Source of the DNA: Meiothermus sp.
Lineage (GTDB): Bacteria; Deinococcota; Deinococci; Deinococcales; Thermaceae
Direction: 5' to 3'
Length of the DNA stretch: 64,000 nt
Assembly (NCBI GenBank): GCA_033762915.1
Contig: JANRLD010000025.1
Coordinates: 1-64,000, forward strand
Made by a program: the position numbers and the translations under genes. Numbering within the stretch: position 1 is the stretch's first letter; each line of letters opens with the position of its first letter. Shown in pieces: positions 39,267-57,500 of the stretch. A model generated the notes under the pieces. It was given only the letters and a program-made list of their open reading frames with translations. It was not told where the DNA came from and did no database searches.

Positions 39267-39779
39267 ATGAAGTGGAGACAGCTTTGGATCATTGGTCTCA
39301 GCCTGGTGCTGGCCCTGGCATTTGCGCAGACCAGGGGGGCAGTGAAGCTCGACCTTCAGGCCTACCGGGTGCTGAGCGTGCAGGAAAACGGCAGGTCCGT
39401 TGAGAAGCTGGAGGAGGCCCTCGAGGTACGCCCCGGCCAACTCATCGAGTACCGCCTGGCCGCCCAGAACACCAGCCAGACCGCCCTGCGCCAGGTCAGC
39501 CTGGTCATCCCGATTCCCCGCACCACCGCCTACCAGGCCCTGAGTGCGGCTCCCCTGCGGCTTGGCCAGAGCCTGGTCGCGCCTCAGTTTAGTTTTGACG
39601 GTGGAAGCGTCTACGGCTTCCCGCCGCTAAAGCGCAAAGTAACTGTGATGGAAAACGGCAAGGAGGTTCAGCGCGAGGTTGAGGTGAAGCCCGAAGAGTA
39701 CACCCATGTTCGCTGGGTTCTGCCGCAGATGGCCACCCAGGAAAACGTCGTCTTGACGCTGCGGGCCACGGTTCGCTAA
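39267..39779 (+). CDS. Small secreted single truncated-DUF11 protein (putative chaperone/cap)
   Basis: GAGGAGG RBS, signal peptide ending AFA-Q, 'RPGQLIEYRLAAQN...VIPIP...HVRW...LTLRATVR*'. Confidence 0.8.
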   Translation: MKWRQLWIIGLSLVLALAFAQTRGAVKLDLQAYRVLSVQENGRSVEKLEEALEVRPGQLIEYRLAAQNTSQTALRQVSLVIPIPRTTAYQALSAAPLRLGQSLVAPQFSFDGGSVYGFPPLKRKVTVMENGKEVQREVEVKPEEYTHVRWVLPQMATQENVVLTLRATVR

Positions 39780-39830: not shown

Positions 39831-42602
39831 ATGAAAAGAACCCTAAGTCTGTTGGTCGGCGCGGTGGCGCTTCTGGGCGTAGCCTTCGCCCAGCAAACCC
39901 CCGCCGGAACCAACATCTCCAACCAGGCCTCGGCCACCTATATCGACTCGGCCGGTCAGAACCAGAGCACCACTTCCAACCAAGTGTTGACCGTGGTGCA
40001 GCAGGTTTACAGCTTCACCATCACCCCCAACTCGGCCAGCACCAGCGAGCCCACCGGCGCCGCCGGCTTCGCCCAGAGCCGCAGCGCCCTTCCCGGTGCG
40101 CGCGTCTACTTCCCCTACACGGTCAACAATACAGGCAACGGCCCTGATACCATCAACCTGACCAGTGTACTCGGTACCGCCGGCGGCACCACCCCCGTTC
40201 GCTTCGTGCTCCAGACCCCCACCATCTACCGCGACACCAACTGTAACGGCTCGGTGGACGCCGGTGAGTCGGTGATCTCCTCGGTGGCCCTCACCCAAAA
40301 CGTCGGGGCACTGGCCGCAACCTCCTTGGCCTGCGTGATCATCGAGACCACCATCCCCAGCAGCGCCAATAACAACGAGGTCGGCAACATCAACCTCTCG
40401 GGGATCTCGGCCGGCAACAACTCGGTGACCGACACCAACAACTGGTCGCGGGCCATCGCCACCACCTCCGCCGCGCTGGACATCAACAAGAGCGCCAGCC
40501 CCAGCAACACGGCTTCGGCGGGCGGCACCATCTCCTACACCATCACCGGCCAGAATCGCGGCGGCAGCGCGGCCTCCGGCCTGACCACCATCCCCACCGG
40601 CCTGGGCAGCATCCCGGTTGCCAGCAGCACCGGCATCCTGATCTGGGACATCGTGCCCACTGGCCTGACCCTGACCGGCGCCCCCAGCGGCTCCTCGGGC
40701 GCGGGCACCGTCAACATCGTCTACTCGAGCGACGGCACCACCTGGACCTCGACCGCCCCGACCTTCGCCACCTGGGCCGGCGACGGCACCCGCCGCGTGG
40801 GCATGTGGATCACCGGCTCGGGCGCTTTCTTCCCCCAGGGGGCCTCGTACACCTTTAGCTTCACCACCAACGTGCCCGCAGGCGCGGCCTCGGGTACCAC
40901 GTACACCAACACTGCCAACCTGCAGTTCAACAACGGCGCCGACGTCGGTCCGGTCGCCTCGAACAGCACCTCCAACACCGTCGGCACCACCTTCGGCGTG
41001 GCCCTTGGCCCCAACGGTACCGCCACCGCTGCGGGCAACGGCGCGGTCGGCTCGGCCGACTCCCAGACCATCGCCTCGGCTTTCAGTGGCCAGACGGTGA
41101 CCTTCACCCAGACCCTGCAGAACACCGGCAATGCCTCTGACAGCTTCAACCTGTCCCTGGGCACCGGCGCGACCGCCCCCAACCTGGCCCCGCCCAGCGG
41201 CTGGTCCTGCCAGATCACCCAGATTGACGGCACCCCCATCAACACCGCCGTCGGGCCTTTTGCTGCCAACGCCACCTTCAACTTCCAGGTGCGCTGCGCC
41301 ATCCCCGCCAGCTACACCACCGCCACCGCGGTTAGCTTGAACGTGATCGCCACTTCGGTCGGCAACTCTGGCACCAGCGACCCCACCGCCGACACGGTCA
41401 GCGCGGTCAGCCTGGGCTACGCAGTCGACCTCGCCACCCGCGGCAACACCTCCAGGCCCGAGACCGCGGCCAACGACAACCCCGCCGGCCAGACCACCAA
41501 CCCCGCAACCACCGTCAGCTTCCCGCTGGACGTGCGCAACAACGGCGAGAACACTGACACCTACCAGCTCTCGGCCACCATCCCCTCTGGCTGGTCGGTG
41601 CAGTTCATCAACGATGCCAACAACAACGGCGTAGCCGACTCCGGCGAGGCCGTGGTCAACAACACCGGCCTGATGGCCAAGGACGCTGTCCGTAGCGTGA
41701 TCGCGGTGGTCACGGTGCCGGCCGGCACCAGCCCCGGCAGCAACAGCCTGACCTTTACCACCACCAGCGCCACCCTGGGCACGGTGAGCAACGCCGTCTC
41801 TACCACCATCACCGTCAACGAGGTCCGGGCCTTCGTATTCGACCCCGACCGCAGCGGTACCGTGACCAGCCCCGGCACCATCGTCTACACCCATAACCTG
41901 CGCAACAACGGCAACGCCAGCGCAACCGTGGCGATCCCCGCGCCCACCTTCCTCAACACCTCCCGCGGCTGGACCTACCAGTACTCCACCGACGGCGGCA
42001 CCACCTGGACCAGCACCGTCTCGGGCTTGGTCCTGGCCGCCAACGCCTCGGCCACCCTGCAGGTGCGGGTGATCGTGCCCGCCGGCGAGGCCATCGGGGT
42101 GAGCGAGACCGCCCAGATCACCGCCACCGCCACCTACGCCAGCAGTGCCACCGCAGCCCAGACCGTCAACGACACCACCACCATCGTGGCCGGCGACCTG
42201 ACCCTGGCCAAGACCGGCATCAGCTACGTGGGCAGCTCCGCCACCGTGCGCTCCGCCACCGCCGCCACCGCACTGCCCGGCGACCAGATCCTCTACACGG
42301 TGGTCGCGACCAACAACGGCGTGGGCAATCTGACCACCGTCAAGATCGCCGACCCGCTGCCCAGCTTCACCGACTTCGTCTCGGTTAGCGCCACTACCAC
42401 CATCTCGGGCGGTACCGTGGTCTACTCCACCGACGGCAACAACTGGACCACCACTGCCCCGACTACCCTCTCGGCAGGTCAGTCCATCTACGTAGCCGTC
42501 AACACCGCCGGCACCGCTGGCGGCGCGGGCAGCATCGACGCCAGCGACCTGATGGCTCCTGGCCGCACCATCACCATCACCTTCCGAGTGCAAGTCCGCT
42601 AA
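39831..42602 (+). CDS. Secreted multi-Ig/DUF11 protein, putative major filament (shaft) subunit
   Basis: GGAGG RBS, 20-aa signal peptide, T/A/S/G/N-rich beta repeats, N-terminal 'TPAGTNISNQASATY' and C-terminal truncated DUF11 ending 'TITFRVQVR*'. Confidence 0.85.
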   Translation: MKRTLSLLVGAVALLGVAFAQQTPAGTNISNQASATYIDSAGQNQSTTSNQVLTVVQQVYSFTITPNSASTSEPTGAAGFAQSRSALPGARVYFPYTVNNTGNGPDTINLTSVLGTAGGTTPVRFVLQTPTIYRDTNCNGSVDAGESVISSVALTQNVGALAATSLACVIIETTIPSSANNNEVGNINLSGISAGNNSVTDTNNWSRAIATTSAALDINKSASPSNTASAGGTISYTITGQNRGGSAASGLTTIPTGLGSIPVASSTGILIWDIVPTGLTLTGAPSGSSGAGTVNIVYSSDGTTWTSTAPTFATWAGDGTRRVGMWITGSGAFFPQGASYTFSFTTNVPAGAASGTTYTNTANLQFNNGADVGPVASNSTSNTVGTTFGVALGPNGTATAAGNGAVGSADSQTIASAFSGQTVTFTQTLQNTGNASDSFNLSLGTGATAPNLAPPSGWSCQITQIDGTPINTAVGPFAANATFNFQVRCAIPASYTTATAVSLNVIATSVGNSGTSDPTADTVSAVSLGYAVDLATRGNTSRPETAANDNPAGQTTNPATTVSFPLDVRNNGENTDTYQLSATIPSGWSVQFINDANNNGVADSGEAVVNNTGLMAKDAVRSVIAVVTVPAGTSPGSNSLTFTTTSATLGTVSNAVSTTITVNEVRAFVFDPDRSGTVTSPGTIVYTHNLRNNGNASATVAIPAPTFLNTSRGWTYQYSTDGGTTWTSTVSGLVLAANASATLQVRVIVPAGEAIGVSETAQITATATYASSATAAQTVNDTTTIVAGDLTLAKTGISYVGSSATVRSATAATALPGDQILYTVVATNNGVGNLTTVKIADPLPSFTDFVSVSATTTISGGTVVYSTDGNNWTTTAPTTLSAGQSIYVAVNTAGTAGGAGSIDASDLMAPGRTITITFRVQVR

Positions 42603-42639: not shown

Positions 42640-42773
42640 CCAAAAGTTCAACTGAGTTAGCTTGACTTCAGGATTCAACAGTTCAGCCACCCCTCGAGCC
42701 GAACTCAGTTAGTGGGACCCCCACCTAACCGCGTCGGCTCGAGTTTTTTTACCCTGAGAAGGAGGTGAGCGTT

Positions 42774-45509
42774 TTGACACCCGACAACCCCAATGCGCCC
42801 ACTTCCCTCGGGGCCCGCGCACAACATCGGACTTTCCTTTTCCCGCTGGCCCTTTTGCTGAGCTTCCTGGCCTGTTTTTGGCCCTCGGCCCTAGCCCAGA
42901 GCGCCCTGGCCGGCACCATCATCTCCAACCAGGCCCAAGTCTCCTTCGCCGAGTCTACCCAGCCCTACTTCTCCAACGTGGTGGAGACCCTGGTTCAGGC
43001 GGTCTGCGCGCCGACCATCACCCCCAACGGAACCCAGGGCAGCCCGGCCCAGCGGGCGGTGGTTTCGGCGGGCGGTTTCGCCTACTTCCCCTACCTGCTG
43101 CGCAATGCCGGCAACCAGCGCAGCACTTTCGCGCTGAGCTCGGCCCAGAACGCCGCCACCTGGGCCCCCCGTTGGGTCCGGTTGTACCTAGATCAAAACG
43201 AAGACTCGAGGCTCGACCCGGGGGAGCCCCAGGTCGCGAGCCTGTCCCTTGATGTGGGGGAGCAGCGCCGGCTGGTGATGGAGGTTGCCCTACCCGCCAA
43301 CGCCACCGGCGACCTGCTGGTCACCCCCACTGCCAGCTGCGTGACCGGCGAGCGCGACGACGACAACTTCAGCCAGATCAGCGTGGGAACCGGGCCCTCG
43401 CTCAACCTCACCAAGTCCACCAGCCGGACCACCCTCGACACCAACCAGGAAACCACCTTCGGGCTCCTGGTGGCCAACCTGGGCAGCACGCGGACGGGCG
43501 GGCCGGTCTCCGTCACCGACTGGCTCAACACCCCCGAACTGGCCGGGCTAAGCATTGTGCCCGGCTCGGCCGAGGCCACCAAGGGACGCCTGGAGTACAG
43601 CGCCGACGGGACCACCTGGAGTAGCCTCGAAGGCACCCAGGTCCTCGGGGTGCGCCTGGTGCTCGATGGCCTGGAGGCCGGCGAGCAGGCAGTCTTCAGC
43701 TTCCGCATGCGCCTGGGCGAGGGTAGCTCGAACGGCCTCCGGCGTAACCTGGCCACCGCCGAGGGTCCGGGCGGGCCAGCGGTGGCCGCCGTCGAGCTGA
43801 CGGTGGCCCCACGCTTCGCCCACCGGTTGGGGCCGCTGGGCCGGCCCGAGGCCAGCGGTGCCCAGGACCGCCAGAGCGGAACCGCCCGTGTCGGGCAGAG
43901 CTACTGCTTCTCACACAGCCTGATTAACCTGGGCAACGCCCCCGACCGCTACACCCTCGAGCTCGGCGTGCTGCCCCCAGGGATAACCGCCAGCTTCCGC
44001 CAGGGCAGCGGCCCGCTGGCCCAACCGATCCTGCTGGGCCAGGGCGAACGCAGTGACTTCCAACTCTGCCTAGGCGGCCTCGATCAGCAGACTCCCAGCT
44101 TCGAGGTCACCCTCAACGCGGTCTCCCAGACCACCGGGGCGGTCGACCCCACCTACGACATACTGGGTGTCACCTACGACCCGGCCAGCGTGCGGCTGCT
44201 CAAGAGCACCGACCGGGCCTCGGCGATGCCGGGAGAGTCGGTCAACTACACCCTGCAAATCAGCAACCCCTTCCCGGTCGCGATGACCAACCTGCGTGTC
44301 AGGGACCAGCTCGACGAGAGGCTGGAGTTCGTCGAAGCCTCTTCAGGCGGCAGCTTCGAACCGGCCAGCCGCGAGGTGGTCTGGACGGTGGGCAGCCTGG
44401 GGGTCGGCCAGACCCTCACCCTGAGCCTGCGGGTGCGGGTGGCCTCCACCACGAACGACGGCCAGATCCCCAACCGCTTCAGTCTCCGGGCCGATCAGTT
44501 CGACGACACCGCCACCTCCAACACGGTCAGTCTGCCTATCCTCACCAGCAGCATCCAGCTGCTCAAGAGGGTAACCCCTGCTCAGGCAGTGGTGGGCGAC
44601 ACCCTCACCTTCACGCTGACCCTACAGAACACCGGCAAGACCGACCTGGTCATCGAGGTGGTTGACACCCCCGGCAAAGGCCTGCGCTACGTGGAGCAGA
44701 GCGCCCAGCCCGCCGCCTCAGCCCAGCGCGGAGAGGGCCTGGTGTGGTCGGGCCTCGAGCTACCCGCCGGGGCCACCCGCAGCCTGAGCTACAAGATGCG
44801 GGTGTTGGCAGGGGCCCCGGAGCTGCTGGAGAACCGCGCGGTGGCCACTGGGGTCAACACCCAGGGGGTGGCGGTGGCGGCGGCCTCGGCGGCGGCCTCG
44901 GTCAAGCTGGACCGGGCGGTGTTCACGCCCATCAACATTCTGAGCGGCAGGGTCTTCCTCGATTCCGACCGCGATGGGCGCTATACGGCTGGTCTGGACA
45001 TCCCGCTACCAGGAGCCAGGCTGGTGCTGTCCAACGGGATGCAAACCCTCAGCGACAAGGACGGGCGCTACGCCTTTCGGGAGCTGCGGGGCGGGGCCTG
45101 GGAGATCTTCCTCGACCCGGCCTCAGCCCCCTTCAAGCCGCTCCCGCACCCCGAGCAGTTAGGTGAAGGCTACCGCCACAGGGTCACGGTCAACGGCCTG
45201 ACCAACTCCGACTTCCCCCTCGAGCGCCCCCTGGGCCAGGCGGTGGTGCAGCGCGAGACCACCCTCGAGTTCGGCCCGCTTAAGGTCTACAAGCGCCTGA
45301 TCGCCCTGCCGGCCGGGTTGCGGGTGGTCTTGGAGGTCAACAGCAGCGAGCCCATGAACGACCTCACCGTCTCCGACCCGGTGCCCGGCGGTGGGCTTCG
45401 GGAGTTCAAATTTGACAAGCTGGAAGGCCCACAGACCGTAACCTACGACTTGCCCATAACGCCCGGGTTCTACCTAACCGACCCGCAGGCCAGGTGGCGA
45501 TACCCATGA
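42774..45509 (+). CDS. Secreted DUF11/SdrD-B-like protein, putative base/adaptor subunit
   Basis: Signal peptide, 'ALAGTIISNQAQVSF', three complete DUF11 domains, and an SdrD-B-like 'GRVFLDSDRDG...PLPGARL...DKDGRYAF'. The GTG at 42765 lies inside a perfect SD (AAGGAGGTGA), so TTG 42774 is the likelier start. Confidence 0.85.
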   Translation: MTPDNPNAPTSLGARAQHRTFLFPLALLLSFLACFWPSALAQSALAGTIISNQAQVSFAESTQPYFSNVVETLVQAVCAPTITPNGTQGSPAQRAVVSAGGFAYFPYLLRNAGNQRSTFALSSAQNAATWAPRWVRLYLDQNEDSRLDPGEPQVASLSLDVGEQRRLVMEVALPANATGDLLVTPTASCVTGERDDDNFSQISVGTGPSLNLTKSTSRTTLDTNQETTFGLLVANLGSTRTGGPVSVTDWLNTPELAGLSIVPGSAEATKGRLEYSADGTTWSSLEGTQVLGVRLVLDGLEAGEQAVFSFRMRLGEGSSNGLRRNLATAEGPGGPAVAAVELTVAPRFAHRLGPLGRPEASGAQDRQSGTARVGQSYCFSHSLINLGNAPDRYTLELGVLPPGITASFRQGSGPLAQPILLGQGERSDFQLCLGGLDQQTPSFEVTLNAVSQTTGAVDPTYDILGVTYDPASVRLLKSTDRASAMPGESVNYTLQISNPFPVAMTNLRVRDQLDERLEFVEASSGGSFEPASREVVWTVGSLGVGQTLTLSLRVRVASTTNDGQIPNRFSLRADQFDDTATSNTVSLPILTSSIQLLKRVTPAQAVVGDTLTFTLTLQNTGKTDLVIEVVDTPGKGLRYVEQSAQPAASAQRGEGLVWSGLELPAGATRSLSYKMRVLAGAPELLENRAVATGVNTQGVAVAAASAAASVKLDRAVFTPINILSGRVFLDSDRDGRYTAGLDIPLPGARLVLSNGMQTLSDKDGRYAFRELRGGAWEIFLDPASAPFKPLPHPEQLGEGYRHRVTVNGLTNSDFPLERPLGQAVVQRETTLEFGPLKVYKRLIALPAGLRVVLEVNSSEPMNDLTVSDPVPGGGLREFKFDKLEGPQTVTYDLPITPGFYLTDPQARWRYP

Positions 45510-48500
45510 AACCAGGAACAGGGAACAGGGAACAGGGAACAGGGAGGAGAAGCTCTCGCGGTCTCTCTCTCCTGGTTCCTCTCCTTTCTTTCCTCGCCCT
45601 CCTGATGTTCGGCAGCGCGCTCGCGCAAGTCCGTACCGAACTCAAGGGGATCGTGCCCGGCAGTGAGCTGCGCTGGGAGATCACCGAACTGCGGGCCAGC
45701 ATCGTGGTCACCAAGCCGACCATTCTGAACCTGCAGATCTACTCCCCGGGCTTCGACCCCAAGGACTACCGCAGCGCCTTACAGGGCAAAAGCGAACTGG
45801 GCGATGAGCGCTACGATAAGGGCAAGGGGCCGATGCGCGCCAGCTTCGCCCTCAGCCGCGACGGGCGGGTGCTCGAGAACCGGGGCTACGGGGTGGAGCC
45901 GCACCGCTGGGTGCTGTTCTTCCGGGGACGGGTGGAACCGGGGGTGTACACGATTGCCAGCAGCCTCAAGGGGCTGGGCAAGAACGCCTTCCTCTACCGC
46001 ATCCAGACCAGCGTCCCCGAATCCGCCGAGCTGCTTGTGGATCCCACCCTTCAGCTCTACGACGTGCGCCGGAGCAGCGCGGTCTCGATCGGCACCATCC
46101 GTGGGCCGAACTGGGTGGAGCCCTTCACCCTCGAGGTGCTGCCGGGGGTGGGGCCGTTTAGGGTGGGCATCTACGACGAGGACGGCCCAAGCGAGATGCT
46201 GGGGCGGGTGCGGCTGCCCGGCCAGCAGGTGGTGCCGCGCCAGGTTGCCGGCGACCGACAGTGGAGCTACTTCAATGTAGCGACGCCCGGCATCTACCGC
46301 TTCGGCTTCGCGCAGGCCCCCACCTCCAGGCAGTACTCCAACACCATCGGGTTCCAGGTGAATGCCTGCATGCAGGTGCGCGGCGACCGCTTCGCGGTGC
46401 TTCCACCCAAGCCGGTTACGGCCAGTGTGGTGAACCAAGCGGGGCAGCGGCTCGAGTTCGCCCCCACGATCACCGGCGAGCAGATCCGCGAGGTCACGCT
46501 GCCCCCGCTGCCCGACGGCTACACCCTGCTGCGCATCGAGACCGAGGGCGGCGAGCCGCTGGCGGCCAACAAAGCCCGGCTGGGCTGCGCGGGCGGAAGC
46601 GTGCGCTTCGTGGTCGCGCTGCCCAAGGTGGCCGAGACGCCGGTCTCGCCGGAGCCCAGAGAGCCCGCCCTCACCGACCCCACGCCCGAGCCCGGCCAGC
46701 CCGAGATGGTGGCCCCCCCGGCCCCGGAGCCCATCGCGGTGGCTCCGCTCGAGCCGCTGGCTCCGCAGCCTGAGCCACAACCACAACCCCAGCCTGAGCC
46801 ACAACCACAACCCCAGCCTGAGCCACAACCACAACCCCAGCCTGAGCCACAACCACAACCCCAACCACAACCCCAGCCCCAGCCTGAACCCCAGCCCCAG
46901 CCCGAGCCGCAACCACAACCCCAACCGCAACCCCAGGTCGAGGTGGTCGCCCCCCCGGTCAAGAAAGGTCGCCTCGAGCTGACGGCCCGCCTGGTGCTTC
47001 CCACGGGTGAGCAGAGCGCCGAGATTGGGGTGCAGGTGGGCGACCAGACCGTCCGGCTCGAGGGCGGGGCGGCCTCGCTCGAGCTGACCCCCGGCAGCCT
47101 GACCCTGACTCCCCAAGTGCAGGGCGCGACAGTGGTCGGCCCCAGCACCGCCGAGGTGCTGGCAGACCAGACCGCCAGGGCCGAGTTTAGGGTCTACCCC
47201 AGCGTCCAGCTGACCCTGCACGCCGACAAAACCGTGCTGAAGATCGGCGAAGAGGCGGTACTGACCGCAACCGCCACAACCGCCTACGCTCGCCTGCTGC
47301 CCGCCAACCTCCAACTTGCCCTGCCTGCCTGCCTGGAGCCGCTCGAGACCCCCCGCCTAACCACCCCGATCTCCGCCGCCCGGCAGGGGGTGCTGCGTGT
47401 CCCGGTCCGTGCGGTCTGCCGGGGTGAGTTTCCTGTCCCGGCGACACTAACCCCCTGGGGCCAAGGGGCCAGTGTGAGCCTTAAGGTGCTGCAGCCACTG
47501 AGGTTTAGCCTGACCAAACAGGCCCTGACCCCCGCAGTCGCGGTAGGGGGCCAGGCAGTCTACCGGCTGACGGTCCAGAACATCAGCGACGAGGCCGGGC
47601 CGGTGACCCTGCGCGACCCCCTGGCCGTGGGCCTGCTGGGTGAGCCTCTCGAGCAAAGCCTGGTCCTCGAGCCGGGCCAGGAGCGCAGCATCGAGCTCAG
47701 CGCCCTGGTCGGCCCCGAGGCCCCGGCCCGCATCCAAAACCGGGCCCAGTTGGTGAACGCTGCCGGCGAGGTGCTGGCTGAGTCTGAGGCCGGGGTCGAG
47801 GTGCTGCGACCGGCGGCCGTGCTGGGCCGCACACTGGACAAGCGCGTGGTGGTCCCCGGCGAGACGGTGGAGGTCGGGCTGACCGTGGGCAACGACGGGC
47901 AGGCCAACCTCGAGTACAGCCTGAGCGACACCATACCCGAGTGGCTCGAAGTCTCGAACCCCCCCAGCTTCAGCGGGCAGCTGGCCCCGGGCCAGCGCGT
48001 GACCCACCGCTACACTGCCACGGTGCGCTTCGGCTCGGGGGCCGAGGGACAGTTTGAGGCCCAACTGCGCTCCAACGGCGGCGACCCCACCGCCACCGAC
48101 ACCCTGCGGCGGGTGCTGGTACCCCTAAGCAAGCGGGCCACGCCCGAGCGGGTGGTGTTGGGGAACGACGCGGCCTTTGAAATCGAGTTCACCAACCCCA
48201 CCGACCACCCTTTGAGCCTGGAGTTGATGGAAGCACCCGACCCCGATCTGGGGATGGATATCCCTGGGGAACTTCGGTACGAGCTGGCCCCCGGAGAGAC
48301 ACAGCGCTTGACCCTTCCGGCTAAGCCCAAGCGGGTGGGGCCCCTGGAGAACCAGGTCACGGCCTTCGTGGGCGGCGCCCCGGCCTCCTTTCCCACCAAG
48401 GCCACCCTCATGGTAATGCCGGTACTGGAGGTGCAGCGCTACTCCCTGGTAACCCTCGAGTTCAGCGCACAGGGGCAGGGCGAGCGACTTCTTCTGACCC

Positions 48501-51412
48501 ACCGGCCGCCCGAGACCGCCGGTTACGAGGCTGGCTCGGCCCGCCTGGACGGCCAGCCCATCCCCGACCCCCGGGCCGACGAGCAGGGCCGGCTCTACTT
48601 CGAGTTCGCGTTCCAGCCCAGGGGAGTCCTTACCTACAGCCTGCGCCACCGCGAGTCACTGCCAGCCCTCCAGCCGCCCACCCTGACCCTGCGCGCCGGC
48701 GACCGCGAGGTGATGCTGCAGGGACAGGTCGGGTTCGGCGACCTGAACCGGGCCAAGCCGCTGGAAGTCAGCCGCCGCGACGGCTACATCCAGTCCCCCC
48801 TCCCCGGCACTATCTTCAGCGTGGATAAGGCCTCGGTCACAGTGGAGGCTCCCTTCGGCCTCGAGGTGCAGCTCCGCCTCAACGGAGAGCTGGTGGACAG
48901 CCGCAACCTGGGCCAGGGCATCTTCGACTCGACCAAGAACCTCCAGCGCCTGGAGTACTTCGGCCTGCCCCTGCGCCGCGGCCGCAACCTGATCGAGGTC
49001 CAGACGGGCGCGGGATCCGACCGCGTGGAGGTCTTCCTGCCCGACCGACCGGTGCGCCTTGAGGCCCGCCCGGTGAGGGTACAGGCCGACGGGCGCACCC
49101 CGCTGGAGCTGGAATTGCGGGCGGTCGACGACAGCGGCCTGCCCTCGGGCTTCGGGCCGCTGACCCTTCAGAGCTCCCTCGAGCCCCTGGCTACCGACGC
49201 CTTCCCAGGCGAGTCGGGCTATCAGGTGCTGCTGCGCGACGGGCGGGCCACCCTCCTGCTCAGGCCCACCGCCACCCCCACCACCCTGCGCCTGCGCATG
49301 AGCTTCAACGACCTCAGCGCTACCCAGGAGTTCTTCGTGGGTGGCCGCCAGAGCAGCATCGGCCAGATTCAGGGCAGCGTGGGGCTGCAGTTGAGCGACG
49401 GCTGGCAGGGCTTCGGCTCCCTGCGCGGCTACCTCGAGACCCCCCTGGCCGGCGGAACCCTGCGGGCCGCCACTGACACCTCGGTGCGCTTCGAGAGCGG
49501 CCAGGCGGTGGTGGAAAACGGCCTGTCAGGCCAGACAACCCCCACCGGGCGTTTCCCGCTGACCGGCGCGGGCAATGAGGCCACCCAGCCCTTGACCTCG
49601 GCCGACCCCCTGGCCGTGCGCTACGACCAGGAGGCGTTCGGCATCGGCTATTACTCCGGGGCGCTGGCCCTGCCGGGGGTCAGCGAACTCCCCCAGGTCA
49701 CTGCATTGCGCGCAGAGAGCCGTGGCGAGCTCCAGTTGCTCGGCTTCGCTGGGGCCCTGCCGGTGACCAGTATCCGTCAGGAGATCGTGCCCGACGGCAC
49801 CCGCCACTACCGCCTGGGCCAGCCCGCCCTGCCCGAGAGCGAGACCGTGATCGTGCGCACAGGGGCCTCCGAGCGGCAGCTCGAGCGCCTGCGCGACTAC
49901 GTCCTGGACGCGCCCACCGGCATCCTCACGCTCTCCAGCCCGCTGTGGCCCAGCGGCCCGGACTTCCAGAATGTCCGGCTGATCATCACCTACGCGCCGG
50001 AGAGCGCCAGCCGGGCCCCGGGCTACGGCATCGGGGTGCGCTACCGGGCCGGCGGGTTTAGCCTGGGGGCAGGCCTGGCACAGCTGCCCCTGGACAATCA
50101 GAGCCGCGACCTGCGCTACGGCCTCGAGGCCGCCTACCAGAGCCAGGACCTGAGCATCCGCCTTACCTACAGCCATGTCGCGCCAGGCACGCCGGGCAAG
50201 ATGGGCTTAGATCTTGGCGGCAACTCCGACACCCTCGAGGGCAGCGCTAACCTGACCCTACAGAACCAGGTCCAAGGACAGGCCCGGGTGGCGGTCAGGC
50301 TCAGCCCCGACGATAAGCTCTCCCTCGAGCACCAGGCCTCGGACATTAACCAGAGCGGCCTGATCTACACCCGCCGGCTGAGCCCAGCGTTTAGCCTCGG
50401 CGGTGGCCTGGGGTACATCTGGGAGAGCGGCAACCTGGCCGCCCTGGCCCGCCTGGCCGCAACCGGGACCCCGCTCAACACCGAGCTGACCCACAGCCAG
50501 CCCTTGAGCCTCCAGGCTCCTGCCCAGACCCGCCTACGCAGCAACTATGCCCTCGACACCAACTTGAGCCTCGAGGCCGAGGCGGTGACCACCTGGGGCA
50601 TAGGAGTCAGCGGCGTGGTGGGGCTCAAGCAGAAGTTCGACGCCGCCAACCTCTCGCTTTCTTACCAGCTGCCTGGGGCTTCGGGCGAGGGCAACCGAGC
50701 CCGGTTCGGCCTCGAGACGCCCTTCAGCCTGAGCGACAGGCTGAGCCTTAATCTCAACGCCGGCTACGAGCAAAGCCTCAGCAGCGGCGATGCCCAGTCT
50801 GCCGCCGGGGCTGCTCTGCGCTACAAAGCCGACGACTTCAGCGCAACCCTCGGGGCCGAGGCCGCGATGGCCAGCGGGCGGCCCAAGGTGGTGCTGCGGG
50901 CGGGCGCGACTGGCCAGATCGACGACCAGCAGACCCTCTCGCTCGATACGACCTACCAGATCGTCCCCACTGCCGAGGGTCGGTTCACCCTGTCGTACGC
51001 ACTGCGCGGGCGGGACGTGAGCCTGCTTTCCTACCACCGCCTGCTGAGCGGCGGTGAGCCGGTGCTCGAGGGGGCGGTGGCCGCCAGCCTCCACCCCGAC
51101 CCTCGCTTCCAGCTGCGCCCCACCGCGGCCTACCGCTTCAAGCCGCTGGACCAGGTGGGCAACACCTACCAGCTTGGCCTGGGGGCCAACTACTACCTCA
51201 CCGACTGGCTGGGCCTGGGCGCGGGAGCCCACTACCAGTTCCAGCCCGGCCTCGGCCAAAGCGCCACAGCCTGGGGTCTCGAGGGCAGCCTTCGGGTGGC
51301 GGATGGGCTGTGGTTCAACGCCGGCTACACCTTCGGCGGCTTCGAGGGCCTGACCGGCGAGACCCGCGGCGGCTTCTACATCCGCCTAGACTTCTTCGGC
51401 GCGACCCGCTAG
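45506..51412 (+). CDS. 1968-aa DUF11-containing protein with a large C-terminal outer-membrane beta-barrel (putative usher/anchor)
   Basis: ATGA-coupled to the previous gene. Signal peptide, PQPE linker, several DUF11/Ig domains, then several hundred residues of alternating G/aromatic beta-strands ending 'GFYIRLDFFGATR'. Confidence 0.82.
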   Translation: MKPGTGNREQGTGRRSSRGLSLLVPLLSFLALLMFGSALAQVRTELKGIVPGSELRWEITELRASIVVTKPTILNLQIYSPGFDPKDYRSALQGKSELGDERYDKGKGPMRASFALSRDGRVLENRGYGVEPHRWVLFFRGRVEPGVYTIASSLKGLGKNAFLYRIQTSVPESAELLVDPTLQLYDVRRSSAVSIGTIRGPNWVEPFTLEVLPGVGPFRVGIYDEDGPSEMLGRVRLPGQQVVPRQVAGDRQWSYFNVATPGIYRFGFAQAPTSRQYSNTIGFQVNACMQVRGDRFAVLPPKPVTASVVNQAGQRLEFAPTITGEQIREVTLPPLPDGYTLLRIETEGGEPLAANKARLGCAGGSVRFVVALPKVAETPVSPEPREPALTDPTPEPGQPEMVAPPAPEPIAVAPLEPLAPQPEPQPQPQPEPQPQPQPEPQPQPQPEPQPQPQPQPQPQPEPQPQPEPQPQPQPQPQVEVVAPPVKKGRLELTARLVLPTGEQSAEIGVQVGDQTVRLEGGAASLELTPGSLTLTPQVQGATVVGPSTAEVLADQTARAEFRVYPSVQLTLHADKTVLKIGEEAVLTATATTAYARLLPANLQLALPACLEPLETPRLTTPISAARQGVLRVPVRAVCRGEFPVPATLTPWGQGASVSLKVLQPLRFSLTKQALTPAVAVGGQAVYRLTVQNISDEAGPVTLRDPLAVGLLGEPLEQSLVLEPGQERSIELSALVGPEAPARIQNRAQLVNAAGEVLAESEAGVEVLRPAAVLGRTLDKRVVVPGETVEVGLTVGNDGQANLEYSLSDTIPEWLEVSNPPSFSGQLAPGQRVTHRYTATVRFGSGAEGQFEAQLRSNGGDPTATDTLRRVLVPLSKRATPERVVLGNDAAFEIEFTNPTDHPLSLELMEAPDPDLGMDIPGELRYELAPGETQRLTLPAKPKRVGPLENQVTAFVGGAPASFPTKATLMVMPVLEVQRYSLVTLEFSAQGQGERLLLTHRPPETAGYEAGSARLDGQPIPDPRADEQGRLYFEFAFQPRGVLTYSLRHRESLPALQPPTLTLRAGDREVMLQGQVGFGDLNRAKPLEVSRRDGYIQSPLPGTIFSVDKASVTVEAPFGLEVQLRLNGELVDSRNLGQGIFDSTKNLQRLEYFGLPLRRGRNLIEVQTGAGSDRVEVFLPDRPVRLEARPVRVQADGRTPLELELRAVDDSGLPSGFGPLTLQSSLEPLATDAFPGESGYQVLLRDGRATLLLRPTATPTTLRLRMSFNDLSATQEFFVGGRQSSIGQIQGSVGLQLSDGWQGFGSLRGYLETPLAGGTLRAATDTSVRFESGQAVVENGLSGQTTPTGRFPLTGAGNEATQPLTSADPLAVRYDQEAFGIGYYSGALALPGVSELPQVTALRAESRGELQLLGFAGALPVTSIRQEIVPDGTRHYRLGQPALPESETVIVRTGASERQLERLRDYVLDAPTGILTLSSPLWPSGPDFQNVRLIITYAPESASRAPGYGIGVRYRAGGFSLGAGLAQLPLDNQSRDLRYGLEAAYQSQDLSIRLTYSHVAPGTPGKMGLDLGGNSDTLEGSANLTLQNQVQGQARVAVRLSPDDKLSLEHQASDINQSGLIYTRRLSPAFSLGGGLGYIWESGNLAALARLAATGTPLNTELTHSQPLSLQAPAQTRLRSNYALDTNLSLEAEAVTTWGIGVSGVVGLKQKFDAANLSLSYQLPGASGEGNRARFGLETPFSLSDRLSLNLNAGYEQSLSSGDAQSAAGAALRYKADDFSATLGAEAAMASGRPKVVLRAGATGQIDDQQTLSLDTTYQIVPTAEGRFTLSYALRGRDVSLLSYHRLLSGGEPVLEGAVAASLHPDPRFQLRPTAAYRFKPLDQVGNTYQLGLGANYYLTDWLGLGAGAHYQFQPGLGQSATAWGLEGSLRVADGLWFNAGYTFGGFEGLTGETRGGFYIRLDFFGATR
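45515..45542 (+). repeat. Heptamer tandem repeat (GGAACAG)x4 in the 5' end of the barrel gene
   Basis: Four perfect 7-bp units starting 9 nt after the A of ATG 45506. Confidence 0.9.
46763..46936 (+). repeat. Coding Pro-Gln/Pro-Glu tandem repeat
   Basis: 24-bp unit CAGCCTGAGCCACAACCACAACCC x4 (46766-46861) plus degenerate units, encoding about 58 aa of (PQPE/PQPQ)n. Confidence 0.92.
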
Positions 51413-51457: not shown

Positions 51458-54328
51458 ATGTACACACCCCTCACAAGGCAGGACTCAGGCCGGGCCCGCG
51501 CTCCCCTGGGCCTTCTCGTCATGGCGCTGCCCGCCCCCCTGACCAGAGTCTTCGCCCTCGCGTTGCTCCTCTGCAGCTTCGCTCAGGCCCAGCTCAGCTT
51601 CACCAACAGCACCACCGCCCAGACCCTAGCCAATGCCCTGGCCGGGCCTGGCGTCACAGTAGTGGCCAACTCCGCCACCCTCACCCGCGCCACCACCAAC
51701 CAGAACAACACGGGCACCTTCAGCGGGGGCACCACCGGAGGCGCCGGCCCGGTGGTCGGGATCGGCTCAGGGGTGCTCCTCAACACCGGCAGCTTCGCCA
51801 CCTCAGTGGCGGGGCCCAACAACCGCAAAGGCTCTTCGGCGGGCGGCAGCCAGCTCACCGACGCTGACCTGACCAGCTTGGCCGGGGCCACGGCCAACTA
51901 CGACACCGTGTTGCTGACCTTCAGCGTAGTACCCAGCGGGCGCAGCCTCAACTTCCAGTACGTCTTCGGCAGCGAAGAGTACCCCGAGTATGTCTGCACC
52001 TCGTTCAACGACGCGATGGGGATCTTCGTGCGGGGCCCGGGCATCTCCGGGCCCTACGCCAACGGCGCGGTCAATGTGGCCACCCTGCCCAGCGGGGACC
52101 GGATTAGCATCAACAACATCAACGGCGGGCAGATCGGCTACCAGGGCGGGGCCACCGGGACCGGCTGTGTCCTGGGCAACAACGCCTACTACGTCGACAA
52201 CGGCGATCCCAACAACGCCACCCTGCCCAACTCGGCCCTGTTCACCAATACCCAGCTCGACGGCTTCACCCGGCCCCTGCGCAGCCGGGTCAGCGTGACC
52301 CCCGGCCAGACCTACGTCGTGAAGATCGCCATTGCCGACACCGGCGACGCGCAGTACGACTCCGCGCTGTTCATCGGGCTGATCTCGAGCCAGTCCGACT
52401 GGGGCGATGCCCCCTCCACCTACGGCACCAGCACCGCCACCAATGGCCCCCTGCACGACATCGACAGCCGGATCTTCATCGGCCCGACCCAGCCCGACGT
52501 GGAGAACGACGGCCAACCCGGGGCGGGGGCCGACGGTGACAACCTCAACGGGACCAACGACGAGAACACCCTCACCACCTTCCCAACCCTTACCTCGAGC
52601 ACCCCCACCTACACCCTTAGCGCAATACCGTTGACCAACACCACTGGCCTACCCGCGACCCTGGCAGGATGGATCGACTTCAACCGCAACGGCCTGTTCG
52701 ACGCCTCGGAGCGGGCCACCGTATCGGTGGCCAGCGGCGCCACCAGCGCCACTCTGACCTGGAGCGGGCTGAGCGGGCTTTCGATCGGGACCACCTACCT
52801 GCGCCTGCGCCTCTCCTCGGCGCTCGACTTCGTGGCCAACCCCCTCCCGACCGGCGGCTACGACGACGGCGAGGTGGAGGACTATGCACTGAGTATCGTG
52901 TTCGGGGCGGTGGTCTCGGGCACCGTCTACAGCGACCTACAGCCCAACGGAACCCGCGACAGCGGCGAGAGCTGGAGTGGGGGCCCGACCGTCTTCGTCA
53001 ACCTGATCCAGGCCGGGACGGTGGTGCAGTCGGCCCAGGTGGCCAGCGGCGGCGGGGCCTACAGCTTCAGCGCGGTGCTACCCGGCAGCTATAGCCTGGT
53101 GCTGGGCGGCTCCATCGGCGCCACCACGCCCGCCTCGCCCGCTGGCTGGATGGCCATCAACCCCAGCCCTGCCCTCCTCAGCGTTACGGTCACCGCAAGC
53201 AACATGCCCAACCAGAACTTCGGCCTGTTTAACGGCTATCGCCTCGCGGGCCTGGTTTTCCGAGACGACGGGCGGGGCGGCGGGACCGCCAACAACGCCC
53301 TGCAAGACGGCGGCGAGCCGGGCTTGGGGGGCGTCACCTTGACCGCCACCGCAGGCCCCAGCACCCGCTCGGCCGCGACCGACGCCACCGGGGCCTACGA
53401 CCTCTACATCCCCGCCAGCTTCTCCAGCGTAACCCTGGGCCACGCTCAGACCCCGGCCACCGGCCACAACAACGCCGGATCGGCCGTCACGCTGGCCTCG
53501 AGCTTCTCCGACCCCGCCGCGAGGCAGCGCAGCCTGGGCACCCTGGCCAACGGCTCGAGCTACTCCTACAACTTCGGGGTGGTATGGGCCTCGGAGCTCC
53601 GCCCCGACCAGAGCGGCCAGGCCACCAGCCCCGGCATCGCCACCTACCGCCACACCTTCCGCCCCGGCACCCTTGGCAGTCTCTCGCTCGCCGCCACCGG
53701 CGCACTGACCTACCGCATCCGCCGTGCCGCCGGCTGCACCGCCCTGGCCCCCTCCGACACCCTGCAGCCGCTGCCCCTCTCTGTGGTCGTCGACGCCGCC
53801 TGGCCCCGCGACCCCAATGGCCGTCTCAGCGCCTGCGAACTCGAGCTGCTGGTCCTGGTGCCCGCCGGACGGCCCAGCGGCGCGGTGGACATCGCCCAAC
53901 TTACCAGCAGCCTGACCTGGGCCGGCAACGCGAGCGTGACGGAACAGCGCAACGTCATCGACACCACCACCGTCGTGGCCCAGGGCGCTCTCCGCCTTGA
54001 AAAGGCCGTCCGCAACGTCACCCAGAACGTCCCCGCCGCCGGCGCCTATACCACCAACGTTGCCGGGCGCCCCGGCGACACCCTCGAGTACTGCATCGCC
54101 TTTCGCAACCCCGGCGCCGCCGCCGTCAGCAGCGCCGTCCTCACCGACCCCATCCCCTTCTTCACCAACTACACCGCTTCCTCCCTCCGCCTCGGCGCCA
54201 CCGCCCTCTCCGACGCCGCCGACGCCGACGCCGGCGAGCTGGTGAGCGGCCTCTACGTCCTGGTTCGCCTCGGCAACCTTACGGCAGGCCAGACCGGACA
54301 GGTCTGCTACCGCGTGACAGTGCGCTGA
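51458..54328 (+). CDS. Putative tip adhesin 1: choice-of-anchor-L-like + GEVED + SdrD-B-like + C-terminal truncated DUF11
   Basis: 'FQYVFGSEEYPEYVCTSFND', 'KIAIADTGDAQYDSALFI', 'DWGDAP', 'WIDFNRNG..GEVEDY'; ends 'QVCYRVTVR*'. The start may instead be ATG 51521. Confidence 0.82.
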   Translation: MYTPLTRQDSGRARAPLGLLVMALPAPLTRVFALALLLCSFAQAQLSFTNSTTAQTLANALAGPGVTVVANSATLTRATTNQNNTGTFSGGTTGGAGPVVGIGSGVLLNTGSFATSVAGPNNRKGSSAGGSQLTDADLTSLAGATANYDTVLLTFSVVPSGRSLNFQYVFGSEEYPEYVCTSFNDAMGIFVRGPGISGPYANGAVNVATLPSGDRISINNINGGQIGYQGGATGTGCVLGNNAYYVDNGDPNNATLPNSALFTNTQLDGFTRPLRSRVSVTPGQTYVVKIAIADTGDAQYDSALFIGLISSQSDWGDAPSTYGTSTATNGPLHDIDSRIFIGPTQPDVENDGQPGAGADGDNLNGTNDENTLTTFPTLTSSTPTYTLSAIPLTNTTGLPATLAGWIDFNRNGLFDASERATVSVASGATSATLTWSGLSGLSIGTTYLRLRLSSALDFVANPLPTGGYDDGEVEDYALSIVFGAVVSGTVYSDLQPNGTRDSGESWSGGPTVFVNLIQAGTVVQSAQVASGGGAYSFSAVLPGSYSLVLGGSIGATTPASPAGWMAINPSPALLSVTVTASNMPNQNFGLFNGYRLAGLVFRDDGRGGGTANNALQDGGEPGLGGVTLTATAGPSTRSAATDATGAYDLYIPASFSSVTLGHAQTPATGHNNAGSAVTLASSFSDPAARQRSLGTLANGSSYSYNFGVVWASELRPDQSGQATSPGIATYRHTFRPGTLGSLSLAATGALTYRIRRAAGCTALAPSDTLQPLPLSVVVDAAWPRDPNGRLSACELELLVLVPAGRPSGAVDIAQLTSSLTWAGNASVTEQRNVIDTTTVVAQGALRLEKAVRNVTQNVPAAGAYTTNVAGRPGDTLEYCIAFRNPGAAAVSSAVLTDPIPFFTNYTASSLRLGATALSDAADADAGELVSGLYVLVRLGNLTAGQTGQVCYRVTVR

Positions 54329-54549: not shown

Positions 54550-57500
54550 ATGATGCCTAAAACCGCCGGCGGATGGCCCGGGCTGGCGGTCGGGCTGGTG
54601 CTTATCGCCCTGACAGGGCTGTCCGGGCCAGCCTCGGCCCAGGCCACCAATTTCTGCGCCAACGCCGGGGGCACCCGCAGCGCCAACCTCTTCGCCCTCG
54701 ACGGAACCTTCGGCACCGCCCCGGCCGGCACCCAGGCCCCCACCCTAACCAGTTCCACCAACCCCACCCCCACCGTCACCCCCCTGAGGTACGCGATGAG
54801 CACAGTGCCGGGCGTGACCGGGGGTTTGGACGCCCAGGGACGCCCCATCGGCACCACCACCTACGCCCTCAACAACCGGTCCACGGTAAACTTCCCCGGC
54901 AACTATAGCCCCGAGGACGGTGAGTACGAGATCACCAACAGCTCCTACAGCCGCCAGGACGGAGCCTGGCACCGTTTCATCGGCGGGCGTAACACCGGCA
55001 ACGAGCGCGACCTGTTCATGTTCATCAACGCGGCCGTGGCGGCGGGGGTCTTCTACGAGCAGACCCTCACCGTCACCCCCAACACCAACTTCGAGTTCAG
55101 CATCTCGATCATCAACCTGATCGCCAACAACTCCTCCATCGTGCCCAACGTAAACCTCGAGATCGACCGACTGGGGGTGGACGACAACAACAACGGCACC
55201 GTCGACGAGAGCGGCGAAGCCCAGACCATCGTCCTTACCGGCAACATCCCCAACAGCAACACGCCCATCTGGCGCGACTACGGCGGGGTCATCAACTCGG
55301 GCGCCTCCAACCGCATCACAGTGCGCTTCCGCAATAACGCCCCCGGCGGCGGCGGCAACGACCTGGCCATCGACAACCTGCAGTTCACCAGCTGCACCGG
55401 GCTGAGTACCGGCAACATCTCAGGCCGGGTCTATCTCGACCAGAACGCCAACAACACCTCCGACGCCGGCGAGCCCGGCTACGGCCCCAACGTGGCGGTC
55501 TCGCTGATCGGCAAGGATCAAAACCTGAACGACTTCATCGTGGCCACCGCCCAGACCGCAGCCGACGGCAGCTACAGCTTTGTCAACGTCCCCGCCGGGA
55601 CCTACACCGTGGCGGTCCCCCAGAACGAGCCCCAGCTCAACCAGGCCAACCCCCGCAACCCCAGCACCACCGCCGTCATCAACTCCGTCACCTATGTAAC
55701 CCGCCCCAGCACGGTGGTGGGCCTGGGGACCAGCCTGACCAACCAGAACTTCGGCTTTGGCCCGGCCCCCATCTCGCTCCAGAAGACCGCCAACGCCAAC
55801 TCCAGCACCGACGCCATCGGCAGCGTGATCACCGCCGCCGCCGTGGGGAACACCTTCCAGTACACCCTGCGGGTCACCAACAACACTGGCACCAACCTCA
55901 GCAGCACCTCGCTTCGCCTGATGGACGCCCTGCCCGCGGGGTTGACCTACGTCACCGGCTCGCTACAGATGGCTCTGGTGACCACCGGCAGCCCCACTTT
56001 CAGCAGCGTCAACGACGGCGGCAGCTACCCCTTCACCGAGCCCAGCGGGCGTCTTTTGGGGCGCAACGTGGGCACCAGCACCAGCAGCTTCAACAATGGC
56101 AACCTCAACAGCGGCGAGACCCTGATCGTACGCTTCAGGGTCACCGTGGCCAGCGGCCCGCCGCCACAAATCTCCAACCAGGGCCGCATCACCTACACCA
56201 TCAGTTCGGTCTCGCGGAACGTCCTTAGCGACGATCCCAACGTGGCCGGTTTTGCCGACCCAGCGGTGGTTGTGGTGGGGGCCAACCTAACCGTCTCCAA
56301 GGTCGCCGATCTGGCCTCGGTCAGCCCCGGCTCGACCCTGCGCTACACCATCACTCTGGTCAACAACGGCGCGCTCCCAACCACCGCCCTGACCCTCCAA
56401 GACCCTCTGCCCGCCGGCCTGACCTACGTACCCAACAGCGCCGAAGCGGCCATCGGGAGCACCCCAGCCAGTTTCACCCCGCTGAACGCCTCGAGCTACC
56501 CCTTCGCGACGGCACGAACCATGGGCAACAACGTCTCCTCGGGCGGCTTCAACAACAACACCCTGGCGGTGGGCGAGACCCTCACCGTGCGCTTCAGGGT
56601 CACAGTCGCGGACACCGCCACCGGGCTGGGCCAGGCCACCAGCCTGTCCAACCAGGCCTCGACCGTGTTCAACTACACCGGCGGCAGCCCGACCACCGTA
56701 CCCTCCGACGACCCCGCCTTCGGCGGCCCCAGCGACCCCACCATCACGCCAGTCCAGTACCCTGACTTGACCATCCAGAAGACCGCCGCCGCCACCTTCT
56801 GGCAGGGCAACAACTCAAGCTACACCCTTACCGTCTCCAACACCGCCGGTTCACCGGCCAGCCTGGGGACCGTAAGCGTGACCGACGTGCTTGACGCTAG
56901 TCTCAACTACGTCTCGGCGGGCGGCAGCGGCTGGAGTTGTGCCTATACTGCGGCCACCCGCACCGTGGCCTGCACCCGCTCGGACGCCCTGAGCGGGGGT
57001 AGCGCCTACCCCGGCATCACCTTGACCGTGGTGCCCACCGCAGCCGGGCCGGTACCCAACACCGCCGGCGTAGCCAACGGAGCCGACAACAACAGCGCCA
57101 ACAACACCTCCACCCTCTCCCTGAGCGTCCAGGCCACCTACACCCTCTCCGGCAATGTGTTCGCTGACGCCAACGCCAACGGCCTGCGCGAGGGCGGCGA
57201 GGCTGGGCTGGCCGGCGTGACCGTCGCGCTGGGCGGGGCGGCTGCGCGCACCGCACTCACCGACAGCTCGGGCAACTACGCCTTCACCTTCCTGATCCCC
57301 GGGAGCTACACCCTCACCCAGACCGACCTGCCCGGATACATCTCCATCACCCCCAACCTGCTGGGCGTGAGCCTGGGCAACGCCGACCTGGGCAACCAGA
57401 ACTTCGCCGACTTCCTGGGCTACCGGCTGAGCGGCACCGTCTTCCGCGACGACGGGCGCGGCGGTGGAACGGCCAACAACGCTCTGCAGGACGGCGGCGA

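Follow-up and report, generated by a model that had tools for sequence, protein, structure and literature searches.

DUF11 domains of the CLIPPER type are immunoglobulin (Ig)-like sandwiches of single-chain fibrillar adhesins, and the CLIPPER domain 9IFR carries an intramolecular Lys715–Asn806 bond together with Asp748 within one chain (Protein Sci 2025, PMC12617251). The accessible part of that paper notes that some DUF11 domains are without the triad, and it describes neither split domains nor a stand-alone small protein (PMC12617251). Here we analysed gene 1 of a 64,000-nucleotide (nt) stretch of Meiothermus sp. DNA (GCA_033762915.1, contig JANRLD010000025.1, positions 1 to 64,000; hereafter the window), which encodes a secreted protein of 170 amino acids (aa) at the head of the presumed fibre genes 2 to 7; by its sequence, this cluster (39831–64000, + strand) reads as a split-CLIPPER fibre operon. 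The gene 1 protein is a diverged, free-standing homologue of the acceptor half-domain found at the C-terminus of fibre subunits; it has lost the reactive residues and is predicted to bind the donor hairpin of these subunits. The account that we favour, if only tentatively, is that it acts as a periplasmic holdase or delivery chaperone for donor hairpins.

Gene 1 shares the PG…Y…N…P.P motifs and probably the Ig-like sandwich with CLIPPER/DUF11 domains, whereas it retains neither Lys nor Asp, its chain has no Asn hairpin and an insertion of ~40 residues with a conserved hairpin has no counterpart in 9IFR. Its closest relatives by profile are the acceptor half-domains of genes 2, 5 and 6 and their homologues, which have the same end point, the same groove and an FS/YS-x-DG motif; however, these keep Lys and Asp, are acidic and T/S/A/G/N-rich and are attached to 700–1300 aa, whereas gene 1 is free-standing, charged and without the pair. 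Among systems beyond this family, BsaA of Clostridium perfringens is described, in the available portion of the report, as forming 'donor-strand exchange and lock' fibres through a spontaneous intermolecular isopeptide bond, and its locus holds a paralogue without the N-E-K triad, BsaB (bioRxiv 10.1101/2024.11.04.621531, PMC11580942). Strand insertion followed by a lock and a triad-less paralogue at the locus would be alike in both cases, but BsaA belongs to the TasA family of a Gram-positive organism with no outer membrane. The threads of Sulfolobus acidocaldarius likewise combine donor-strand complementation with covalent inter-subunit links, but they are archaeal, built from a different subunit family on a single membrane, and the accessible text describes no decoy partner (Nat Commun 2022, PMC9715654). 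Full-text searches and the accessible part of a 2026 review, which mentions intermolecular isopeptides for sortase pili only, yielded no description of a split-DUF11 fibre in diderms or of the small gene 1 family.

Self-welding subunits pose a control problem, namely how their reaction is prevented in the periplasm. In chaperone-usher pili, PapD and FimC are small, basic, Sec-exported periplasmic chaperones of the Ig fold, encoded with the pilus subunits and an outer-membrane platform. Gene 1 resembles them in size, probable fold, putative Sec export, basic isoelectric point (pI) and gene context, and its proposed job, blocking polymerisation before export, would be alike as well; yet PapD consists of two Ig domains and offers a strand to the subunit groove, whereas gene 1 has one and is predicted to do the inverse, accepting a subunit hairpin. 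CsgC, a small periplasmic β-sandwich that inhibits curli polymerisation substoichiometrically, also restrains a fibre subunit, but its client is an amyloid and CsgC is not a homologue of the client's docking domain. The parts of gene 1 on which the following analysis turns are these:

39267..39779, + strand: gene 1, secreted protein of 170 aa made up of an acceptor-only DUF11/CLIPPER-like domain that has neither the Lys/Asp pair nor the Asn hairpin.
39267..39326, + strand: putative signal peptide of gene 1, MKWRQLWIIGLSLVLALAFA, with cleavage before Q21, as read from the sequence.
39339..39362, + strand: strand A, residues 25–32 (AVKLDLQA), the site of the isopeptide Lys in acceptors, here with no core-facing Lys.
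39498..39521, + strand: I81 strand, residues 78–85 (SLVIPIPR), with I81 at the place of the acceptors' catalytic Asp (ADPLP/TDPIP).
39627..39716, + strand: family-specific conserved stretch, β-hairpin 121–140 (KRKVTVMENGKEVQREVEVK) followed by PEEYTHVRW, outside the predicted donor interface.

The longest frame for gene 1 in the mechanical list of open reading frames (ORFs) opens at GTG 39222 and has 185 aa. All 26 aligned homologues begin at or near ATG 39267 instead. The ORF is real; its ATG is preceded by a Shine-Dalgarno-like AGGAGGAG, and the frame of 170 codons ends at 39779. Residues 1–20 are hydrophobic and end in ALAFA/Q, a helix is modelled at 3–22, and the aligned relatives all have a hydrophobic N-terminus ending near A-x-A-Q; we read this segment as a Sec signal that lacks a lipobox. 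The source genome holds one copy of gene 1. Scanning for promoters and terminators gave 0 promoter-like sites and 1 terminator-like site, the latter on the opposite strand, which is within shuffle expectation.

The gene 1 protein is a diverged DUF11/CLIPPER relative and not a scoring member of the curated models. It has no Pfam match to PF01345 (DUF11) at E ≤ 0.01 nor, at the same threshold, to the families of the PapD N- and C-terminal domains, and TIGR01451 of NCBIfam aligns with residues 53–90 at 17.4 bits, below the cut-off of 24. Its relatives link it to the family: a word-indexed search returned 46 of 158–183 aa and one 100-aa fragment, those with names all being Meiothermus or Thermus, and an exhaustive search of 1.84 billion cluster representatives gave 1034 matches at E ≤ 0.001 and 161 at E ≤ 1e-10, with 117 of the 149 newly listed matches having 140–215 aa. 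When 116 small relatives were scanned against Pfam and NCBIfam, 35 matched PF01345 (best E 2.1e-7) and 46 matched TIGR01451, and no curated family specific to them was found. Coverage of PF01345 in the matching relatives spans at most profile positions 8–83 of 114, compared with 5–111 for a complete internal domain of gene 3; since coverage halts by position 83, the family is a DUF11/CLIPPER-like domain ending ahead of the last hairpin. The same C-terminal motif, …R-x-x-V-[KR], ends 100 of the 116 relatives. Profile–profile alignment (hhalign) of the small family with 27 C-terminal acceptor domains bearing Lys and Asp gave 98.35 % (E 1.1e-14, 133 columns), and both profiles terminate on the same last strand, which bears out the reading of gene 1 in the initial annotation as a single truncated DUF11 ending on that strand.

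AlphaFold2, run with 27 sequences, modelled gene 1 as one all-β domain of ~150 residues with twelve strands after the signal helix (predicted local distance difference test (pLDDT) 91.5; predicted template modelling score (pTM) 0.78). Foldseek comparison of the model with the Protein Data Bank (PDB) returned nothing at E ≤ 0.001, the top entry being TTHA1873 (E 8.7e-3, TM 0.36), and a profile search of the PDB sequences gave arrestin matches alone, at chance level (E ≥ 0.021); 9ifr scored E 0.47. Comparison with 48,161 chains by VIA-align found generic Ig sandwiches (Z ≤ 8.3), Gram-positive pilins at Z 6–7 and the CLIPPER domain 9ifr_A at rank 10 (Z 7.4, root-mean-square deviation 2.9, 91 residues aligned); such Z values are common, and it is therefore chiefly the sequence profiles that support the fold assignment. 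Compared with a canonical DUF11 domain, an insertion of ~40 residues comprises FS-x-DGG and the hairpin 121–140 (modelled strands 121–129 and 132–140) and is followed by P-x-EYTHVRW. This is the most conserved part of the family, and P142, Y145, T146, R149 and W150 are invariant among the 45 operon-linked copies.

What sets the small family apart from the acceptors is the loss of the reactive pair. Of 48 true acceptor domains, 41 keep the Lys and 43 the Asp, which is replaced by Glu in 3. I81 of gene 1 falls on the acceptor Asp column in hhalign, as the initial annotation had proposed from the motif pairing alone, and this column holds L38, G32, V15, I12, M7, A3, Q3, T3, D2 and F1 in the 116 relatives and I24, L8, G4, V3, N3, D2 and M1 in the 45 operon-linked copies; two Asp-bearing copies (L060 and L061) have no Lys in the strand-A stretch displayed. 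For the Lys, the same annotation had placed Q31 where acceptors have K, and this did not hold: in the pairing of LDLQAY with LTLAKT the Lys falls on A32, and the Q31 column is variable, with Lys in 10 of 116 relatives and 12 of 45 operon-linked copies, this residue presumably facing outward by strand alternation. The Lys-equivalent register differs by method, being A32 by that pairing, L30 by the position of the donor Asn in the complex model and ~S37 by hhalign. The conclusion is not affected by the register, because no core-facing position holds Lys: the count is 0 at positions 26, 28, 30, 32, 33, 35 and 38 in the 116 and in the 45 sequences, and sporadic Lys residues, at most 19 of 116, occur at the alternating positions. 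The chain moreover stops before the Asn hairpin, so a Lys–Asp–Asn triad within the domain is absent. The homologue alignment that had been suggested as a check thus confirms that loss of the pair is systematic, and the conserved Lys and Asp typical of the acceptor class are not a trait of the small family.

The putative partner of gene 1 is provided by the next two genes:

39831..42602, + strand: gene 2, 923 aa, presumed shaft subunit whose N-terminus bears a donor hairpin and whose C-terminal acceptor, with Lys and Asp, is cut before the Asn hairpin.
39891..40034, + strand: donor hairpin of gene 2, QQTPAGTNISNQASATYIDSAGQNQSTTSNQVLTVV…, placed in an alignment of 45 hairpins.
42765..45509, + strand: gene 3, 914 aa, presumed base subunit that has a donor hairpin at its N-terminus, contains complete DUF11 domains and ends in …LTDPQARWRYP.

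Pfam places DUF11 at residues 808–891 of gene 2 (profile positions 7–81 of 114), where TIGR04226 matches as well. Genes 2, 5 and 6 end in DUF11 domains with LTLAKT or LRLEKA and ADPLP or TDPIP, stopping at …FRVQVR* or …YRVTVR*, and in genes 2 and 3 the signal peptide is followed by …AGT-x-I-x-N-x-A…SN-x-V…. The latter stretch matches the sequence that follows the '…LRVRV' strand in a complete DUF11 domain, as in the internal …LSLRVRVAS…IPNRFSLRA…TSNTVSLPI of gene 3. Because these half-domain sequences match the triad positions of 9IFR, the Lys and Asp are assigned to the C-terminus of a subunit and the Asn to the N-terminus, and from this we infer a covalent head-to-tail fibre.

For complex prediction, mature gene 1, with an alignment of the 45 operon-linked copies, was combined with the first 48 mature residues of gene 2, with 45 cognate hairpins on the donor side, of which 43 rows were used. 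The interface score ipSAE was 0.88, 0.87 and 0.88, against 0.00 for the best of 3 controls, and the runs had a contact agreement of ≥ 93 % and a partner pLDDT of ≥ 79; the verdict supports binding by a mark that 116 of 157 solved complexes and 2 of 215 mismatched pairs attained in calibration, counts that apply here roughly because our own alignments were supplied. In the model, the first donor strand (residues 11–17) pairs with mature residues 57–62 of gene 1 on the I81 strand and the second (29–30…) with mature residues 8–10 on strand A, the gene 1 interface comprising mature residues 3–12 and 52–62. Asn11 of the donor, invariant with G6 and A13 in the 45 aligned hairpins, contacts L30 (mature residue 10) and P82. 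The hairpin is thus predicted to dock in the canonical groove, where the last hairpin of an intact domain should lie, and the modelled gene 1 shows the acceptor half-domain layout, ending on the strand before the Asn hairpin with a groove for a foreign one. The proposal that gene 1 binds donor hairpins without a covalent lock is in this way supported by the prediction, whose pass denotes a compatible groove, not affinity, reversibility or preference over acceptors with Lys and Asp. Self-complementation by the protein's own hairpin 121–140 is not supported, as the foreign hairpin fills the groove in the model and mature residues 101–120 lie outside the interface, although the free protein might still complement itself in this way.

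Linkage with the donor genes was surveyed by a pattern search with a narrower alignment as the query, in one genome per species, which gave 73 loci, 72 of them counted by script; the one left out by the ORF-length filter, L027, shows the same arrangement, with a hairpin gene downstream. The loci come from Thermaceae, Deinococcaceae, Trueperaceae, Thiothrix and other Gammaproteobacteria, Geobacterales, Gemmatimonadota, cyanobacteria, Nitrospirota, Campylobacterales and Hydrothermia, and the phyla of the small family include Deinococcota, Pseudomonadota, Desulfuromonadota-type lineages, Gemmatimonadota, cyanobacteria and Nitrospirota. An N-terminal-hairpin gene starts right after the small gene in 44 of the 72 loci, and in 4 the downstream flank is under 900 nt. 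The usual order is the small gene, a shaft gene (hairpin … V-x-V-[QKR]), a base gene (hairpin … RWRYP) and a giant of 1300 to over 2300 aa. Co-occurrence was followed in 251 genomes of the phylum, each at least 90 % complete, by scoring the gene-3-type C-terminus and the small protein, which were present in 179 and 217 (G243 included), respectively. Of 59 Thermaceae genomes besides the source, 44 hold both and 14 hold neither, one (G061) has gene 3 without the small gene and none has the small gene without gene 3, these counts being descriptive. One genus (g2) has each gene type in 19 of 30 genomes, the same 11 lacking both, and from this patchy, matched presence the small gene and gene 3 are seen to be gained and lost together.

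These patterns bear on the idea that gene 1 is an independent Ig-domain protein, for example an envelope or matrix component, that shares only ancestry and neighbourhood with the fibre genes, or, as a variant, that its own hairpin 121–140 fills the groove. Deinococcus orphan copies far from fibre genes would fit it, as would a monomer model that is confident without a partner (pLDDT 91.5) and structural neighbours that are generic Ig sandwiches. It has to contend, however, with synteny in 44 of 72 loci across phyla, with the 44/14/1/0 co-occurrence in Thermaceae and with a predicted complex that puts a foreign hairpin in the groove, and we consider it highly improbable.

The composition of gene 1, charged and basic, is unlike that of the fibre subunits. 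D+E+K+R make up 22.7 % of the mature protein (pI 9.6), compared with 7.6 % in gene 2 (pI 4.4) and 7.6–11.3 % in genes 2, 5 and 6 together (pI 4.4–4.8). In 43 of 44 locus pairs the small protein exceeds its shaft neighbour in charge, in all 44 its pI is the higher of the two, and in 30 its pI is above 7; the charged composition remarked on in the initial annotation is thus borne out.

On this basis we propose that gene 1 works as a chaperone by the following scheme, in which the other exported parts are encoded by these genes:

45494..51412, + strand: gene 4, 1972 aa, with a PQ/PE repeat and a C-terminal porin-like β-barrel, presumed outer-membrane anchor or export platform.
51458..54328, + strand: gene 5, 956 aa, presumed tip protein (GEVED, SdrD_B) with a truncated acceptor end bearing Lys and Asp (…LRLEKA…LTDPIP…YRVTVR*) and no donor hairpin.
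54550..58512, + strand: gene 6, 1320 aa, presumed tip protein with the same truncated acceptor end as gene 5.

Fibre subunits would carry a split CLIPPER (DUF11) domain, with ~seven strands including the Lys and the catalytic Asp at the C-terminus and the Asn-bearing last hairpin supplied by the N-terminus of the subunit that follows, so that head-to-tail docking would be locked by a spontaneous Lys–Asn isopeptide bond. Gene 1 would be a Sec-exported soluble Ig domain that still has a groove between strand A and the strand of I81 and has hydrophobic residues at the Lys and Asp sites; for this reason it is expected to accept the Asn hairpin of genes 2 and 3 without welding. By masking the donor hairpin of newly exported subunits, it might block early locking onto the acceptor ends of others, until at the outer-membrane platform (gene 4) a real acceptor with Lys and Asp takes the hairpin over and the bond makes the exchange irreversible. 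The high conservation of the hairpin could allow a single gene 1 copy to serve several donors. The chaperone role appears the most likely one because the reactive residues are lost across phyla while true acceptors keep them, because the composition of gene 1 is unlike that of every exported fibre part, because gene 1 is the first cistron, beside the major subunit, and because a second partner could bind the conserved surface that it has outside the donor interface. We infer the periplasmic location, the reversibility, the hand-over and the covalent nature of the fibre; that gene 1 is periplasmic, binds reversibly and prevents premature polymerisation is suggested by its composition, the missing Lys and Asp, the gene order and analogy. 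For a PapD-like mode of action, with transient subunit binding in the periplasm and hand-over at an outer-membrane usher, the indirect indications are the putative signal peptide, the charged composition and the predicted barrel of gene 4.

Much of this evidence could also be read in favour of a distal cap or initiator. Gene 1 would then be exported first and sit non-covalently on the free hairpin of the outermost shaft subunit, perhaps priming the platform, at a site otherwise held by tip adhesins such as genes 5–7, and it would be the sole acceptor-only protein in minimal operons. With an acceptor end and no donor hairpin, gene 1 has the topology of the tip proteins and resembles a minimal tip, the same predicted docking fits, and non-covalent strand complementation, as in chaperone-usher pili, can be very stable; furthermore, Thiothrix-type loci show the small gene, the shaft and the giant alone within 10 kb, with no other acceptor-only gene detected there. 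Yet the other fibre parts keep Lys and Asp, and their loss from the small family would be odd for a permanent joint in thermophiles; no fibre part, not even at its acceptor end, has such a charged and mostly basic composition; the window operon already holds three acceptor-only candidates bearing Lys and Asp; and the conserved hairpin with PxEYTHVRW lies outside the donor interface, hinting at a second partner. We therefore regard the cap as unlikely, though as the foremost rival of the chaperone.

A further possibility, which we judge improbable, is that gene 1 negatively regulates fibre length or number by titrating donor hairpins, much as CsgC restrains curli subunits, the ratio of gene 1 to gene 2 setting the amount of fibre with no delivery to the platform. 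The same binding prediction applies, gene 1 is the first gene of the operon and directly follows an OmpR-type response regulator, and loss of Lys and Asp suits an inhibitor that is not consumed. Such a regulator is hardly separable from a chaperone with the present data, and the strict co-inheritance with structural genes in Thermaceae fits an assembly component at least as well.

Several points weigh against the chaperone role. The complex pass may be a memory of the intact CLIPPER fold, as 9IFR is in the PDB, and close cousins of a true partner also pass the calibration, so that a decoy is not separable from any acceptor. Donor-strand complexes of chaperone-usher pili are kinetically very stable, and because full two-strand insertion resembles them, release of the hairpin from gene 1 would not be self-evident. 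The scheme also leaves the open acceptor grooves of the subunits uncapped, and 14 of the 44 small-protein copies are acidic. As for linkage, the regular expression found no hairpin gene downstream in 24 of the 72 loci, an upper bound because it misses divergent hairpins; 4 of these loci (L058, L062, L067 and L068) have a hairpin gene just upstream, and the Geobacterales loci have a gene of 438–456 aa and a giant of ~2000 aa downstream that the donor expression missed. About 10 are Deinococcus orphans with no hairpin gene found downstream, and the three inspected show no fibre genes in the flanks displayed. In family f4, the small protein occurs in 66 of 69 genomes versus 25 of 69 for the gene-3-type C-terminus, and related genomes are not independent, so that the co-occurrence counts overstate the evidence.

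Should the chaperone account be right, gene 1 would be a natural dead 'Catcher' that holds a 'Tag' reversibly, a new logic for fibre chaperones, and would provide a ready-made tool in the form of a thermostable non-covalent competitor for isopeptide tag/catcher pairs. The broader proposal, that gene 1 represents a new class of pilus chaperone acting by acceptor mimicry, the inverse of PapD, within a phylum-spanning self-clicking split-CLIPPER fibre of diderms, is possible, and we hold it with a little more reserve than the chaperone role itself.

In the remainder of the cluster, the stop of gene 3 overlaps the start of gene 4, whose barrel matches Porin_4 of Pfam at residues 1491–1642 (E 2.2e-7) and, more weakly, OMP_b-brl. 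A 58-residue PQ/PE dipeptide repeat occupies residues 424–481 of gene 4, between its N-terminal region and DUF11-like domains, the barrel being C-terminal. The N-terminal parts of genes 5 and 6 differ (GEVED versus SpaA/SdrD_B/DUF11), and 216 of their last 330 residues are identical, which looks like the duplication of one tip module followed by a change of head. Gene 7 is an open frame of 2020 aa that runs past the window end.

Variation among the surveyed loci is seen in L048, L055 and L053 (Thiothrix and other Gammaproteobacteria), where the second hairpin gene is itself a giant of 1951–2050 aa and resembles a fusion of base subunit and outer-membrane platform. The Deinococcus orphan copies are L034, L036, L039–L042, L044–L046 and L057, with flanks inspected in L034, L040 and L045; in L040 and L045 the gene follows a glmM-like gene. 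A Cys lies in the last strand of the copies of L040, L045 and L049 (…CFIR…, …NCNLRV…). L049, from a record titled Taylorella asinigenitalis, lies on a contig of 66.6 % G+C with a Deinococcus-like orphan copy and is probably a contaminant contig in that assembly, Taylorella being low in G+C. The source assembly of the window has 5.38 Mb in 119 contigs with a contamination of 0.51 %, and the 20 same-genus genomes searched have 2.4–3.9 Mb (rounded).

Upstream of gene 1, the OmpR-type response regulator is encoded at 38318–39001 (+ strand), with no histidine kinase in the stretch inspected. It is preceded by two tandem paralogues at 35500–36774 and 36943–38220 (+ strand), of 424 and 425 aa, which by their sequence are probably glutamate-dehydrogenase-like.

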